Origin: Clostridia bacterium
Lineage (GTDB): Bacteria > Bacillota > Clostridia > UMGS1810
Direction of reading: 5' to 3'
Length of the DNA: 64,000 nucleotides
Assembly: GCA_045633845.1 (NCBI GenBank)
Contig: JAZQZC010000036.1
Coordinates: forward strand, 2,004 to 66,003
Position numbers and translations under genes: made by a program. The notes under the pieces are model-generated. The model was not told where the DNA came from. It did not search any database and saw only the letters and a program-made list of their open reading frames with translations. Of the stretch, positions 24,557-49,099 are shown one piece after another. Each line of letters opens with the position of its first letter. The stretch's first letter is position 1.

Positions 24557-26914
24557 TTATTTCATCAACATCTCATTATATTGCTCTCTTGTTATAAGCA
24601 CCTGACGAGGCTTGTTGCCGTCAAGCTCGGATATTATTCCGCGTCGTTCCATCTGGTCTATAATGCTTCCTGCTCTGTTGTAGCCTATGCGAAATCTCCT
24701 TTGCAAGAGAGATGTGGATATTGTACCACTGTCTACCGCCATTTCGATTGCCTCGGGCAGCAGCTCGTCTGCATCACCCGGGTCTTGTCCGTCGGGCTCG
24801 TAGTGTTCTTCGCTCTCAAGCTGCTCTATAACAGTTTCGTCATAAGACGGTGTATAGTCGCTGGAGACAGCCTCCACAACTTTTTTAACGTCGCCGTCCG
24901 ATACAAATGCACACTGCATACGGCTTGGCTTTGTTTCGCCAACAGGCATATAAAGCATATCACCTTTGCCTATAAGCTTTTCGGCGCCGCCCATATCAAG
25001 AATTGTTTGCGAATCACGCACCGACGCAACCATAAACGAAATACGGCTGGGTACATTGGCTTTAATGTTACCTGTAATAAATTTTACAACAGGTCGCTGT
25101 GTTGCAATTACAAGGTGCATACCTGCAGCGCGGGCAAGCTGAGCAATACGGCAAACATAGTTTTCTACATCGCCGGGGGCAACCATCATAAGGTCGGCAA
25201 ACTCGTCTATGAGTATAACAATAGACGGCATTTTGCCCTCGGGAGTCCCGTTGCGCTCCATAAGCTCGTTGTAGCCCTGAATGTTACGCACATTGTTTTG
25301 CTCAAAAATTGAGTATCGCTCGGTCATTTCTTTAACTGCCCAGCCAAGAGCACCTGTGGCTTTTTTTGCATCCTTAACCACAGGGATAAGCAGGTGGGGA
25401 ATACCGTTGTACACGCCAAGCTCAACCTGCTTGGGGTCTATCATAACAAGCTTTACTTCGTTTGGGTCTGCCTTGTACAAAAGGCTTATTACAAGTGTGT
25501 TTATGCATACACTCTTACCTGCACCTGTAGCACCTGCAATAAGCAAGTGGGGCATTTTTGCAAGGTCCATAATAATGGGCTTTCCGCTTATGTCTTTGCC
25601 CAGTGCAACCGCAAGCTTTGAGGGGTGATTTTTAAATTCGTCACTCTCGAGTACATCGCGCAGCATAACGTCGCTTCTGTTTTTGTTTGCAAGCTCAATT
25701 CCTATTGTGGTTTTGCCGGGTATTGGTGCAACCATAACGTCTTTTTCTGCCGCAAGGGCAAGAGCAAGGTCTTTTGAAAGTGAGGTTATCTGGCTAACCT
25801 TAACACCCTCGGCAGGCTTAACCTCGTAGCGTGTAATTGTGGGGCCCTGGCTGATTTCCACAACGCTTGCATCTACCTTAAAGCTGTGGAGTGTTTCAAC
25901 AAGCTGACGTGCATTTTGCTGAAGCTCCTCGCTTGATGCACCAGGTCCTGCGGCTCTTTTTGGCTTTGAAAGCAAGTCGAGCTGCGGGTAGTTGTACTGC
26001 AAAATCAAATCATTCTTTTCGGCTGCGGTTGTTTCCATCTCGCGCTTTATTTCGCAGTCAAGCTGCTCTTTTTCCTGCTCGGTAAGTCGCGGTTCAACCT
26101 CTGGCTCGGCAGCAACCTCGTGGTCGATGTATTCTTTTTCGCCGTTGGCTTTTATAATTTCTTTTCCTGCCTCTGTGTTTATTGTAATGTCGTTCGGCAT
26201 AACTTCAAACTGCTCTTCAACAGCCTTGATTTCCTGTTCTGCCTGTGCAACCTTTTTCTTGTCAACCTTTACCACTGTGTGAGCAACAGGGTTAAATTCT
26301 TCGTCTGCTTCTTTTCGGTTTTCTTCTTTTATGGTGTCAATATCCTCTTTTATGTGACGTGCAGTGCCTGTAATCATACGGATAATACTATTTATCACTT
26401 TTACAATGGAAATATTGAATATTGCTATACAAAGTATTATAAACAGTGCAAAAAACAAAATATTTGCTCCTACTGAGCCAAGAAGTGCCTGCATAGGCAT
26501 ACCAATGCTTGCACCTATAAGTCCGCCGCTTGGGTGAAGCTGTGCGTATGTATAGTACATTGCGTATTCCATACCGCTGCTTGAGGCCAAAATCATATGG
26601 AATATTGCGGTAAGGTCAATAAATGCAACGCCCGAGAGTATCATCTTTTTGCTTATTCCGTTTTTTTCGGGAGCAAACAGGCAGTATACCGTTGCTGCAA
26701 TTGCGGCAACAGGCAGCAAATATGCACAGTAGCCAAACAATCCCATAAAGCATTCGGATATAAAGCCGCCTACTGCACCGCCGCTTCCCGAATAGATGCT
26801 TATTGCAAAAAATATGCTTGCTGCAATTATGCAGACAGCAGTGATTTCAAATGATGCTGTACTTTTTGGGGCAGTACTTTTTACCTGCCTCTTTTTAGTG
26901 CTTTTTTTAGCCAT
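24557..26914 (-). CDS. ftsK: DNA translocase FtsK/SpoIIIE
   Basis: N-terminal TM domain, Walker A GATGAGKS, DEFADLMM, and a C-terminal gamma winged-helix (LLQRRFRIGYNRAGSIIDQME). Start set at MAKKSTKK (26914, RBS GAGGAA). The 24 extra N-terminal codons in the ORF track read into the inserted element. Confidence 0.93.
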   Translation of the reverse strand: MAKKSTKKRQVKSTAPKSTASFEITAVCIIAASIFFAISIYSGSGGAVGGFISECFMGLFGYCAYLLPVAAIAATVYCLFAPEKNGISKKMILSGVAFIDLTAIFHMILASSSGMEYAMYYTYAQLHPSGGLIGASIGMPMQALLGSVGANILFFALFIILCIAIFNISIVKVINSIIRMITGTARHIKEDIDTIKEENRKEADEEFNPVAHTVVKVDKKKVAQAEQEIKAVEEQFEVMPNDITINTEAGKEIIKANGEKEYIDHEVAAEPEVEPRLTEQEKEQLDCEIKREMETTAAEKNDLILQYNYPQLDLLSKPKRAAGPGASSEELQQNARQLVETLHSFKVDASVVEISQGPTITRYEVKPAEGVKVSQITSLSKDLALALAAEKDVMVAPIPGKTTIGIELANKNRSDVMLRDVLESDEFKNHPSKLAVALGKDISGKPIIMDLAKMPHLLIAGATGAGKSVCINTLVISLLYKADPNEVKLVMIDPKQVELGVYNGIPHLLIPVVKDAKKATGALGWAVKEMTERYSIFEQNNVRNIQGYNELMERNGTPEGKMPSIVILIDEFADLMMVAPGDVENYVCRIAQLARAAGMHLVIATQRPVVKFITGNIKANVPSRISFMVASVRDSQTILDMGGAEKLIGKGDMLYMPVGETKPSRMQCAFVSDGDVKKVVEAVSSDYTPSYDETVIEQLESEEHYEPDGQDPGDADELLPEAIEMAVDSGTISTSLLQRRFRIGYNRAGSIIDQMERRGIISELDGNKPRQVLITREQYNEMLMK

Positions 26915-26950
26915 TTTAATTCCTCGCTTATTTTTTTCTGAAGGTTTCCA

Positions 26951-27228
26951 TAGTGTGACAGGATTCGAACTCTCAATGCCTGACATCTGAAATTTTTGAA
27001 ATCTTTCAGTTTGTCGGTTTTGACGGGCGTCAGCCCGCCTGCAACCTGTCGCACTGAAATCTCAACAAAAATTTCAAGATGGCAGGTGCAAAGCAGTTTC
27101 ACATAGAAAAATTCTTCTGAAACAAGGTAAATTACGAAGGGAATACTTGCGTATTTTCAAGGAATTTACCGATGTTTTAGGTGAATTTTTTATGTGAAAC
27201 CAATGTTGGTTCGAGTCCTGTCACACTA
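26951..27228. mobile_element. Family-2 MITE-like element, copy A (274 bp plus flanking TA/TA)
   Basis: Termini GTGTGACAGGATTCGAAC / GTTCGAGTCCTGTCACAC with TA on both sides. 260/276 identical to the inverted copy at 48823-49098. Overlaps the last 16 codons of rho. Confidence 0.85.
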
Positions 27229-28526
27229 AGTTCTTTGTTACTTTTTGTTTTTAATAAGTTTGCAATCAGGGTTTCGGTAACATCGGCACCGCCGTTGCCT
27301 GACAGGCTTCGCCTTAATGCCCACGAAAATTCTTTTTCGCTTTTGGAGAGGATTAGCTCGTCTTTTCGTGTGCCAGATTTGTAAATGTCAATTGCAGGGA
27401 ATATTCTGCGCTCCGAAAGCCGTCTGTCAAGGTGAACCTCCATATTGCCTGTGCCTTTAAATTCTTCAAAAATTACATCGTCCATTCTGCTGCCTGTTTC
27501 GATAAGGGCAGTTGCAAGGATGGTAAGGCTGCCGCCTTTTTCGATGTTTCGAGCCGCACCAAAAAACTTTTTGGGCTTGTGCAGTGCAGCAGGGTCAATG
27601 CCGCCCGAGAGTGTTTTGCCTGTAGACGGAACAGTAAGGTTGTACGCTCTTGCAAGCCTTGTAATGCTGTCAAGGAGAATTACCACATCCTGTCCGTGCT
27701 CAACAAGGCGCTGTGCACGCTCCAAAACCATCTCGGCAACCTTTATGTGGTGCTCAGGCAGCTCGTCAAAGGTAGAATAAATAACCTCGCCGTCTATTGA
27801 GCGCTTCATATCGGTAACCTCTTCAGGTCTTTCGTCTATAAGCAAAACAATCAGGTTTACCTCGGGGTTGTTTTTGCTGATGCTGTTGGCAATGGATTTG
27901 AGCAGGGTGGTTTTGCCCGCCTTTGGCGGAGCAACAATCATACCTCGCTGACCCTTGCCTATGGGAGCAATAATGTCTACAAGACGCATTGCGTGGTTGT
28001 CTGGCTCTGCTTCAAGGCGTATCCTCTCGTTTGGATACACAGGGGTGAGCACGTCAAAGGGCTTGCGGTTGATTGCCTTGTCGAGAGTGTCGCCGTTTAT
28101 ATCCTTTACATATATAAGTGCGTCGGAACGCTCTCTGTCATTTTTTGGTCGGCATATGCCGTGAACCATATCGCCTGTCTTAAGACGAAAACGTCTTATC
28201 TGAACAGGTGATACATATGTATCGTCGTCTGTAGACAAATAATTTTCACCGCGCAAAAAACCATACCCATCCTCGCAAAGCTCCAGTATACCTGTAACCT
28301 CGTAGGTGTTATTTTGATTTTCGTTTTCGTTTTGGGGGGCTTTTTCGGCAGGAGTACCGTCGGGTATCTGTTCGGGGAGTGCTTGGTCGGTTTGTAAATC
28401 TTTATCGGACAACAAGTTTATAAGCTCGTCTTTTTTCAGCTTGCTTATGCTTTTGATGCCCTTTTCTTTTGCAAGCTCCTTGAGGCTTGCAAGTGACATT
28501 TTTTGCAATTCGTTTTTTGTGCTCAT
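27177..28526 (-). CDS. rho: Transcription termination factor Rho, with C-terminal 16 aa encoded by the inserted element
   Basis: Rho N-terminal domain ([14 protein letters not shown]), CSD-like RNA-binding domain (GYGFLR), Walker A PPKAGKT, and Q and R loops. The tail after ...KTKSNKEL is element sequence. Confidence 0.95.
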
Positions 28527-30469: not shown

Positions 30470-31156
30470 ATGAAGAGTAATCTGGCACAGCTGGAACAAA
30501 AGCTCGGATATAAATTTAAAAACCCAAAGCTGCTTACACAAGCACTGTGTCACAAATCATATATAAATGAAAGTGATGGCAGCATCAAGTCGTACGAAAG
30601 ACTTGAGTTTTTGGGCGATTCGGTATTGGGAGTTGTTGTCAGCCGATACATATACGATAACTATGCATCGTTTCCCGAGGGTGAGCTAACAAAGCTTCGG
30701 GCAGCTGTTGTGTGCGAAAGGTCGCTTTCGCAGCTGGCACGCAACCTTAATATGGGAGAGTATATATATTTAAGCAAAGGCGAAATGCAAAGCGGAGGGG
30801 CAGACAAGGATGCTATACTTTGCGATGTGTTTGAAGCGGTAATTGCAGCAATATATCTCGACAGTAATATGGAAAAAGCGCGCACGTTTATATTAAACAA
30901 TCTTGCCGATATAATACAAAAGCAGGCGCAGCTCGGCAGTGACTTAAACGATTACAAAACAACCCTGCAGGAAATTGTGCAGCAAGACGGCGGCACTGTT
31001 GAATACAAAATTGTTTCGGAATCGGGGCCCGACCACGCCAAGCAGTATGAGGCAGCTGTGTATGTAAACGGAAGCAGTGTTGCATTGGGCAGCGGCGGCA
31101 GCAAAAAGAAGGCACAGCAGGATGCCGCAAAAAATGCAATTAAACTAATAAAATGA
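30470..31156 (+). CDS. rnc: Ribonuclease III
   Basis: Signature ERLEFLGDSVLG and a C-terminal dsRBD (GPDHAKQYEAAVYVNG...KKKAQQDAAKNAI). Confidence 0.95.
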   Translation: MKSNLAQLEQKLGYKFKNPKLLTQALCHKSYINESDGSIKSYERLEFLGDSVLGVVVSRYIYDNYASFPEGELTKLRAAVVCERSLSQLARNLNMGEYIYLSKGEMQSGGADKDAILCDVFEAVIAAIYLDSNMEKARTFILNNLADIIQKQAQLGSDLNDYKTTLQEIVQQDGGTVEYKIVSESGPDHAKQYEAAVYVNGSSVALGSGGSKKKAQQDAAKNAIKLIK

Positions 31157-47793: not shown

Positions 47794-48804
47794 TTACAGC
47801 TTTAATTTAAGGTCGTTTGGTTTTATCCAGTTAATCTTTTTAAGTATTGCCGAAAACAGCGGTGTAAGTATTGCCGGGAGCACAAAGCAAACCAAAAGCA
47901 TACCCACAAGCTTAAATGTGTTAAAGCCTGCATCGGTCATAAGTCCTATCGGGCCTACAAGACCGCAGGTGCCCATACCCGAAGCTATTGCAACAGGGTT
48001 TTCAAGCTTAAAGAGTATTGTTGATATGGGGCCTGTAATTGCACTTGTAAGTATGGAGGGAATCCATATTCGCGGGTTTTTCATTATGTTGCCCATCTGC
48101 AGCATACTTGTGCCCAGGCCCTGAGCAACAAGGCCGCCAAAGCCGTTTTCTTTAAAGCTCATAAATGCAAAGCCCACCATCTGCGCACAGCAGCCTGCTG
48201 TTGCCGCGCCGCCTGCAAGGCCCACAAGCCCGAGGGATGCACAAATTGCAGCAGAGCTTATGGGCAGTGTGAGGCATATGCCCACAACAACCGAAACAAG
48301 CATACCCATCCAAAATGGCTCAAGCTCAATACAGGTCATAATAAAGCTGCCGAATGCTGCCATAACAGACGAAACAGCAGGGCTTACAAACATAGCCATT
48401 GCAGTACCTGCCGCAATTGTAACGGTGGGGGTTACAAGTATGTCTATTTTTGTCTCTTTACTAACTATTTTACCAAGCTCGCATGCAACAACAACTGCCA
48501 CAAATGTACCCATAGGCCCACCAAGAGTGTTTGAAGCAAAGCCCACTGCGCAAAGGGAGAGCAGCACAAGGTTTGGTGCGTTCATTGCACTGCCTATTGC
48601 CACCGCCATTGCAGGGCCTGTTGCAGATGTTGCATATTCCTTCATTGTGGCAAAAAATTCTATACCTGTTTTGTCATACACAGTGCCGAATATTGTGCCG
48701 ATAAGTAATGATGCAAAAAGACCGAGCGCCATTGCTCCCAGTGCATCAATAAAATATGCCTTGAATGTAATGTTGATGTTTTTGCGTTTTAAAAAGTTTT
48801 TCAT
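47794..48804 (-). CDS. PTS EIIC-like integral membrane protein (stand-alone EIIC_2-type)
   Basis: About 336 aa and highly hydrophobic, with Gly/Ala-rich helices (GPAMAVAIGSA, GLVGLAGGAATAGCCAQM), as in orphan EIIC-like proteins. No EIIA/EIIB partner lies nearby. Confidence 0.55.
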   Translation of the reverse strand: MKNFLKRKNINITFKAYFIDALGAMALGLFASLLIGTIFGTVYDKTGIEFFATMKEYATSATGPAMAVAIGSAMNAPNLVLLSLCAVGFASNTLGGPMGTFVAVVVACELGKIVSKETKIDILVTPTVTIAAGTAMAMFVSPAVSSVMAAFGSFIMTCIELEPFWMGMLVSVVVGICLTLPISSAAICASLGLVGLAGGAATAGCCAQMVGFAFMSFKENGFGGLVAQGLGTSMLQMGNIMKNPRIWIPSILTSAITGPISTILFKLENPVAIASGMGTCGLVGPIGLMTDAGFNTFKLVGMLLVCFVLPAILTPLFSAILKKINWIKPNDLKLKL

Positions 48805-48821: not shown

Positions 48822-49099
48822 CAGTGTGACAGGACTCGAACCAACATTGGTTTCACATGAATAATTTACCTGAAACTTCAGTAAATTCCTTGAAAATACG
48901 CAAGTATTCCCTTCGAAATTTACCTTGTTTCAGAAAAATTATTCTATGTGAAACTGCTTTGCACCTGCCATCTTGAAATTTTTGTTAAGATTTCAGTGCG
49001 ACAGGTTGCAGGCGGGCTGACGCCCGTCAAAACCGACAATCTGAAAGATTACAAAAATTTCAGATGTCAGGCAGTGATAGTTCGAGTCCTGACACACTA
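48822..49099. mobile_element. Family-2 MITE-like element, copy B (inverted relative to copy A)
   Basis: GTGTGACAGGACTCGAACC...AGTTCGAGTCCTGACACAC, flanked by CA on the left and TA on the right. 94 percent identical to the reverse complement of copy A. Lies 19 nt upstream of the EIIC-like start codon. Confidence 0.85.

Follow-up and report, generated by a model that had tools for sequence, protein, structure and literature searches.

A TA-flanked inverted-repeat element, probably a MITE of a new family, inserted into the 3′ end of rho in a Clostridia bacterium

The rho gene of a Clostridia bacterium (Bacillota; Clostridia; UMGS1810) is interrupted at its 3′ end by a 274-bp element with terminal inverted repeats and a TA on either side. 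The gene lies in a 64,000-nt stretch of DNA (assembly GCA_045633845.1, contig JAZQZC010000036.1, positions 2,004 to 66,003 of the forward strand), which was analyzed at its full length and is called the window hereafter. The element is very probably a miniature inverted-repeat transposable element (MITE), namely a non-coding, non-autonomous DNA transposon of the cut-and-paste type; it represents a new family of this well-known bacterial kind, and its insertion into rho is recent and polymorphic. The first-pass annotation of the window had already delimited the element and both flanking TAs, and every coordinate was correct. The element and its ends are as follows, with relatives denoted by locus numbers; L140 is GCA_052839005.1, a metagenome-assembled genome (MAG) treated as conspecific, and L141 belongs to the JAZQEG MAG.

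26953..27226, plus strand: MITE of subfamily A, 274 bp, bounded by inverted repeats; exact 276-bp insertion relative to L001, L002, L003, L140 and L141
26951..26952, no strand: left TA of the target-site duplication; a single TA (L141) or TG (L140, L001) at the empty sites
27227..27228, no strand: right TA of the target-site duplication, from the filled/empty comparison and the flanks of the family
26953..26970, plus strand: left terminal inverted repeat, GTGTGACAGGATTCGAAC
27209..27226, plus strand: right terminal inverted repeat, GTTCGAGTCCTGTCACAC, complementary to the left repeat at 17 of 18 positions

The plus strand carries the element in what we call the forward orientation of the family, left repeat-GCCT ... 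GAAACC-right repeat. When the TA is included, the repeat arms span 20 nt and are 95% complementary, and the outer repeat columns are invariant in 26 aligned copies. The 18-mer repeat occurs four times in the window at up to three mismatches, against 0.02 occurrences expected by chance, and these four are both ends of the rho copy and both ends of a second copy. At 274 bp the element is of MITE size and has no capacity to encode a transposase; inside it, the only open reading frames (ORFs) are mechanical calls overlapping host genes.

The insertion has divided the former end of rho from the rest of the gene and has moved the downstream ftsK gene away from it:

27177..28526, minus strand: rho in its current form, 449 aa; codons 434-449 (27227-27180) and the stop codon (27179-27177) are element-derived
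26928..26951, minus strand: stranded ancestral rho tail ATG GAA ACC TTC AGA AAA AAA (METFRKK) with its stop TAA (26930-26928); matches the tails of P0122, P0125 and P0001 and aligns to the junctions of relatives
24557..26914, minus strand: ftsK, 785 aa, with the ribosome-binding site (RBS) GAGG at 26925-26922; 262 nt from the rho stop, formerly 13 nt

On the minus strand, rho reads GAA CTT and then AGT GTG ACA GGA CTC GAA CCA ACA TTG GTT TCA CAT AAA AAA TTC ACC TAA, which confirms the earlier claim that its last 16 codons and stop are element sequence. The host-encoded portion of the protein ends ...KTKSNKEL and continues through the right repeat into 16 element-encoded residues, the stop codon lying 47 nt inside the element. 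The insertion point is the TA spanning codons Leu433 and Met434 (CT-TA-TG), so that 7 original residues at the C-terminus have been exchanged for the 16 new ones. Alignment to solved Rho structures places this swap about 5-7 residues before the end of Rho, past the ATPase core.

The original tail is recorded in the closest homologues. The window Rho falls in a 90%-identity cluster of six proteins, in which P0122 and P0125 (440 aa) end with 15 residues identical to the tail that the first-pass annotation had reconstructed in silico by deleting the element; the other three members (446 aa) end ...KTKNNKELMETFRKK at their stop codon. P0122 is 97% identical to the window Rho (over 436 aa, or counted up to residue 433). 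The tails of the cluster relatives and of the next-closest homologues conform to (M/I)ETFRKK, the latter reading LIETFRKK, and more distant Rho homologues keep a tail of the type ...EF(I/M)..(K/R)K. None of the relatives compared has a Rho that ends naturally in the 16-residue tail of the window.

At the DNA level, alignments with relatives place the extra block of the window precisely between ...AAAGAACT and ATGGAAAC. The predicted empty site GAACTTATGGAAAC was found in L141, where GAACT-TA-TGGAAAC aligns to the filled site of the window, and L140 and L001 have the synonymous empty site GAACTGATGGAAAC. In total, five relatives at 96%, 88%, 85% and 74-78% nucleotide identity are devoid of the element. 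The closest of them, L140, is 96% identical on both sides of the rho-ftsK junction, at which the window is longer by a net 276 bases. As L140 is this similar yet lacks exactly 276 nt, the insertion is, judging from these genome sequences, polymorphic at about the species level, and it is recent, as had been proposed, because a MAG at 96% identity retains the empty site.

Presence and absence alone give no direction, and the element might instead have been ancestral at the rho site and precisely excised from the relatives. This is very improbable because independent exact excisions would be needed in five relatives ranging from 96% to ~75% nucleotide identity, all of which share the uninterrupted junction, the functional tail and the stop codon; moreover, the ...EF(I/M)..(K/R)K-type tail is kept in Rho homologues far outside the group. 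There is equally little reason to regard the insertion as an artefact of metagenome assembly, in which a repeat was misplaced in the MAG contig. In metagenome contigs, identical left flanks are joined to differing right flanks across copies of the family, and mis-joins, whether by assembly or by recombination, are therefore possible in principle, but on either side of the rho copy the sequence is collinear with that of the relatives over several kb, the TA duplication is exact and no part of the element is missing, whereas a chimeric join would not produce a perfect filled site.

The rewritten tail of Rho reflects the codon phase in which the element landed. The element junction reads TA-GTGTGA. 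An ORF that enters with TA at codon positions 1-2 ends at TAG, and the next phase reads xTA GTG TGA, that is, two codons and then a stop; in the third phase alone, reading continues for 16-17 codons into the element. Therefore, a host ORF is ended at once in two of the three phases. Many copies are located precisely at real ORF ends, as exemplified by an asparagine synthase gene terminating at the junction TAG. In contrast, rho was struck in the third phase and reads 16 element codons before TAA. Tails of this phase begin with SVTGLEP in Rho, in a GNAT acetyltransferase (L049:1767-2038) and in a Tim44-like protein (L006:6689-6962), and the latter two end SVTGLEPVTPTKQ(K/N)FA. The rho insertion is thus the unlucky-phase case of a common landing pattern.

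The stops in the other two phases, a second copy in the window and a wider family were all additions to the first-pass annotation. The second copy is located in a divergent intergenic region, where 19 nt separate its right end from the downstream ATG of a PTS EIIC gene (47794-48804, minus strand):

48824..49097, minus strand: second MITE copy, 274 bp, 94% identical without indels, in the opposite orientation to the rho copy

For the wider family, an exact repeat-pattern scan of one genome per species gave more than 100 loci, and a scan of metagenome contigs with the element repeat gave at least 120 further loci. Full copies were deduplicated by their flanking sequence, and the counts given here and below for the family are of unique sites among the matches listed. 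At least 53 full copies of 272-274 bp are present in gut Clostridia MAGs and metagenomes; they form three subfamilies, A (the window type, 7 copies), B (40) and C (6). The repeats are 18-26 nt long and conserved in every copy collected, and 49 of the 53 copies are flanked by TA on both sides, as expected from the TA target-site duplication proposed at rho. Beyond the TA, the target context shows a weak C/T-rich and purine-rich bias. The interiors of the three subfamilies largely differ, and BLAST with the window copy misses B and C.

The named hosts are MAGs of uncultured gut Clostridia (Acutalibacteraceae, Ruminococcaceae and 'Eubacteriales') from human, sheep, goat and buffalo. Many repeat matches are at contig ends, as is usual for a multi-copy repeat. 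The JAZQEG MAG, which is empty at rho (L141), nevertheless carries a 95.6%-identical copy of subfamily A elsewhere (L075), and subfamily A has therefore been active in this clade. Plasmid and phage collections contained no similar sequence, and a literature string search for the repeat returned no relevant paper. The family thus appears to be undescribed so far.

Several groups of metagenome contigs share the left flank of the MITE but differ in the right flank that follows it. One comprises L168, L173, L215, L222 and L235, another L180, L188, L192, L224 and L226, and the same holds for L250 and L251. These are either assembly chimeras at the repeat or products of real recombination between copies.

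All three subfamilies have the same length and the same three-part architecture, in which both repeats form a terminal stem that encloses two internal hairpins of ~105-110 nt. In the rho copy, these hairpins are as follows.

26978..27087, no strand: internal hairpin H1, ~110 nt, with the apical stem GGGC-GTCA-GCCC; helices 2-5 of the family consensus
27096..27200, no strand: internal hairpin H2, ~105 nt, with the invariant base GTTTC...GAAAC; helices 6-10 of the family consensus

Folding of the plus strand gives a minimum free energy of -123.9 kcal/mol (z-score -13.5), and folding of the minus strand gives -114.4 kcal/mol (z-score -12.0). In the alignment of 26 element copies, 95.3% of the cells at 70 consensus pairs are paired, compared with 28-45% in controls whose partner columns were slid by 1-3 positions. 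Compensatory double changes were found at 36 of the 70 pairs, including 18 of the 24 pairs in helices 2-5 of H1, while in H2 two compensatory pairs distinguish the two window copies; the independent lineages behind these counts are few (essentially the three subfamilies and the variation within them), and shuffle statistics are to be read with caution. At several pairs, three different Watson-Crick types occur, one per subfamily. The slid controls and these three-state pairs are convincing evidence for a shared fold.

The pairs predicted from both strands contain 24 G-U and 25 A-C cells, the strand with the lower minimum free energy varies by subfamily, and the GC skew is about 0. Selection on the RNA of one strand was rejected on the basis of this symmetry. 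Because the covariation is equal on both strands, the architecture is probably required in the DNA itself, for transposition or persistence, and the fold constraint points to such a DNA-level or otherwise orientation-independent requirement, not to one particular RNA. Searches of Rfam with the window copy and with subfamily B and C loci returned only chance-level microRNA and small-RNA models far below the gathering threshold. No conserved sigma-70-like promoter or intrinsic terminator was found in consensus scans of any subfamily, and a terminator-like match in L032 proved to be the terminal hairpin next to a flank that is T-rich by chance.

The position of the copies relative to genes is less symmetrical. 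With all copies turned to the same orientation according to their internal asymmetry, 14-17 unique sites have a Shine-Dalgarno sequence and start codon no more than ~35 nt from the right end, but only 2 have them this close to the left end (binomial p about 0.001-0.004), and the ORFs upstream mostly read into the left end. The two exceptions are the rho-ftsK copy and L013. No explanation for the bias emerged from the searches for promoters, terminators, skew and strand-specific pairing.

The ends of the element also resemble part of a tRNA. Over its outer 18-21 nt, the repeat is identical to a tRNA T-arm and 3′ acceptor strand, and each end can form a local terminal hairpin with a stem of 8-10 bp, or 12 bp including the TA, and a UUCGAGU loop. 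Subfamilies B and C have their own hairpin at each end, GTGACAGG-TTCGAGT-CCTGTCAC. With its GG-UUCGA(G/A)U-CC T-loop signature, the hairpin is similar to a tRNA acceptor/T-arm minihelix, but, unlike a tRNA, the element has neither a D arm nor an anticodon arm. The exact repeat pattern also recovers likely tRNA genes at the bacterial loci L015, L018, L055, L062 and L108 (cyanobacterial, Lachnospiraceae), and two bacterial tRNA matches are tRNA-Arg judging by visual inspection of the anticodon loop. Viral contigs were rejected as carriers, since all 22 repeat matches in them (L118-L139) look like phage tRNA genes by sequence. That the element itself is a tRNA gene was rejected as well, as ARAGORN reported no tRNAs in the window and only the T-arm and 3′ acceptor segment is shared. 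The resemblance may be due to chance or may be a relic.

The terminal hairpin also occurs on its own. TA-flanked mini-elements consisting of the terminal-repeat hairpin alone, GTGTGACAGG-ACTCGAA-CCTGTCACAC, are present at 19 unique sites, of which 17 are 27/28 bp and 2 are 44-45 bp long. They are most simply explained by deletions between the direct repeats CCTGTCAC present at both ends. Examples are as follows.

L105:2383-2409, mini-element
L012:5882-5908, mini-element
L035:4595-4621, mini-element
L014:3737-3780, mini-element
L259:781-825, mini-element

The insertion may have consequences for the message of rho and ftsK. Past the element, the minus strand runs through the METFRKK codons and TAA into GCGAGGAATTAAA and then the ATG at 26914. 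The spacer between the rho stop and the ftsK ATG is 13 nt in all five relatives, which substantiates the tight ancestral junction proposed in the first-pass annotation, and FtsK is 785 aa in both L140 and L141 with this spacer. The insertion displaced ftsK by 276 bp from rho and would remove any translational coupling between the two genes. When the fold of the junction RNA is predicted, the element forms its structure independently, and the RBS and AUG of ftsK are unpaired; in the rho-ftsK mRNA it would be a self-contained folding module of about -120 kcal/mol that leaves the ftsK RBS free. The 20-bp terminal duplex may serve as a site for RNase III, whose gene rnc is the ORF at 30470-31156 of the window; its L141 counterpart has Pfam RNase III and dsRBD domains. 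On the other hand, ribosomes finishing rho cross the first 47 nt of the element and would open the terminal duplex.

As a separate observation, the element supplies a new in-frame ATG at 26986, from which the mechanical ftsK ORF is 809 aa (MSGIESSNPVTLWKPSEKNKRGIK followed by MAKK...; added segment 26915-26986, minus strand). No Shine-Dalgarno sequence precedes this ATG, and automated gene calling could wrongly extend the N-terminus of FtsK by 24 residues.

These properties bear on an unlikely alternative, in which the element is mobile and at the same time a functional structured RNA, an intercistronic or 5′-untranslated module that processes or stabilizes neighboring mRNAs through RNase III acting on the 20-26-bp terminal stem or RNase P or Z acting on the minihelix-like ends, and that uncouples rho from ftsK. 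Gene starts abutting the right end, upstream ORFs entering the left end, the very stable, covariation-supported fold, the tRNA-like 12-bp terminal hairpin and the RNase III gene in the window would all fit this idea, and the Correia elements of Neisseria yield RNase III substrates (PMC2229807). However, the conserved stems lack strand asymmetry and the better-folding strand differs by subfamily; neither an Rfam family, a conserved promoter or terminator nor an ARAGORN tRNA was found in the respective searches; and the rho copy itself has the minority orientation. A bolder form of the idea, to which we give slightly less credence still, regards the family as a mobile self-folding 'punctuation' module whose transcripts host RNases (RNase III, RNase P or Z) would recognize by the minihelix-like ends, the terminal stem and the two hairpins. 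The stops in its termini would permit harmless landing at gene ends, selection would hold its orientation through tuning of the downstream message, and rho and ftsK would have been split into two separately handled messages.

We favor the MITE interpretation, according to which the element would be mobilized in trans by a DDE transposase making 2-nt staggered cuts at TA, as in the IS630/Tc1-mariner type. The long conserved terminal repeats and the TA duplication are the reason for proposing this type, and the mover is probably an IS630/Tc1-like TA-targeting transposase. An autonomous partner of the element was sought within the ~230 fetched loci. Pairs of repeats at 0.7-6 kb, or TA-flanked 18-nt inverted repeats at 0.7-3 kb, in no case enclosed a transposase in these loci, and the ORFs within the candidate intervals are housekeeping genes. 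When ORFs of at least 180 aa were clustered, the sole multi-copy transposase near copies was of the ISL3 type. ISL3-type elements generate an 8-bp duplication, and this transposase was rejected as the partner because it is of the wrong kind. Its gene, which encodes a zinc-finger N-terminus, adjoins subfamily B copies (L009:184-853, L193, L216, L226 and L192), and in L216 and L226 the ORF ends at the MITE junction TAG.

Several points weigh against a MITE moved in this manner. No autonomous element with the family repeats and no adjoining transposase was found among the ~230 loci, and the terminal repeat of IS630 itself, CTAAATAGCTGCGC... (PMC11544213), is unrelated to that of the element. The second window copy is flanked by CA and TA on the plus strand, not by TA on both sides. 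The strong orientation bias toward gene starts is not explained by a purely DNA-level parasite. Finally, the junctions would look no different had a recombinase with a 2-bp TA crossover produced them, so that we infer the class of transposase indirectly.

This last point leads to a further alternative, a site-specific recombinase of the IS607-type serine or IS110-type DEDD class with a 2-bp TA core and a circular intermediate, in which case the TAs would not be a true duplication. A duplicated TA and a TA crossover core are inseparable by sequence alone, and no DDE transposase partner was found in the ~230 loci. Nevertheless, we consider a recombinase improbable. The repeats are 18-26 nt, nearly perfect and conserved, and long near-perfect repeats are usual in DDE cut-and-paste elements but not at the ends of IS607 or IS110. 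Furthermore, the targets share little past the TA and its weak context, and no recombinase gene is near any copy in the fetched loci.

Among known elements, the present MITE family is similar to the Correia/NEMIS elements of Neisseria in being non-coding, multi-copy, bounded by TA at both termini and located near or inside genes, and in neither family is the transposase firmly assigned. Correia/NEMIS elements have terminal inverted repeats of ~24-26 bp, and their transcripts fold into long stem-loops that are substrates of RNase III (PMC2229807), whereas for the present family the corresponding evidence consists of the predicted 20-26-bp terminal duplex and the rnc gene. The likeness is one of kind only. 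The two are set apart by host phylum (Firmicutes gut Clostridia here) and by size (273 bp versus 107-155 bp), and the three-part fold of the present family is kept across subfamilies by covariation.

The RUP element of Streptococcus pneumoniae likewise inserts at TA and is multi-copy and non-autonomous with terminal inverted repeats. It is thought to be moved by IS630-Spn1 (PMC2229807). Unlike the present element, however, RUP is 107 bp long with 9-bp repeats that resemble those of a resident IS630-family element, and no such partner was found here in ~230 loci. The cyanobacterial Nezha, an IS630-derived MITE, shares the same traits as RUP. Palindromic mobile repeats translated within host proteins are also represented by the Rickettsia palindromic elements (RPE), ERIC and RU-3, whose fusions to ORFs include C-terminal ones (PMC2229807). 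In contrast to RPE, which lie in frame within proteins, the present family is mostly at ORF ends and has terminal stops in two of the three frames; long read-ins are therefore exceptional. An identity with REP/REPIN sequences was rejected on the basis of the consistent TA duplication, the long terminal repeats and the lack of a RAYT-like ORF near any copy.

Other repeats were observed in the neighborhood of these elements. Many copies abut another TA-flanked repeat, with the terminus TAGGCAAGCGA(G/T)AATAATCCGAACC, and are inserted at its terminal TA (L032:571-598, L048:2919-2950, L109:5531-5560, L035:4622-4660 and the flanks of L179, L207 and L216). Some loci, e.g. L007, look hybrid, with one end of the MITE type and the other of the TAGGCAAGCGA(G/T)AATAATCCGAACC type. 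The window also contains a further repeat family with ends GGTGACAGTGGGGGATG..., present as two inverted copies at 1550-1745 and 2405-2555 with arms of 134 nt that are 94% complementary. The copies lie on either side of a SpoIIR gene (1777-2412), the TGA stop of which is within the repeat end. A related block of ~250 bp is located between ftsK and a radical-SAM gene in L140 (5097-5345) and is absent from the window, which makes it a reciprocal polymorphism.

MITE-ORF fusions and MITEs between co-transcribed genes are already known, and for this reason the rho insertion as an event is unsurprising to specialists. Its interest lies in the natural Rho variant that it created, in which a MITE rewrites the C-terminus of a global regulator and breaks a conserved 13-nt rho-ftsK junction, while the conspecific empty allele is a ready control for the role of the extreme C-terminal tail of Rho and of rho-ftsK coupling. 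The family is abundant among uncultured Clostridia of the human and animal gut, where its repeats break metagenome assemblies and create misleading gene calls such as the false FtsK extension and the SVTGLEP... tails. The fold, the terminal stops, the tRNA-like repeat and the orientation bias of this family are useful for understanding the constraints on MITEs beyond transposase binding.

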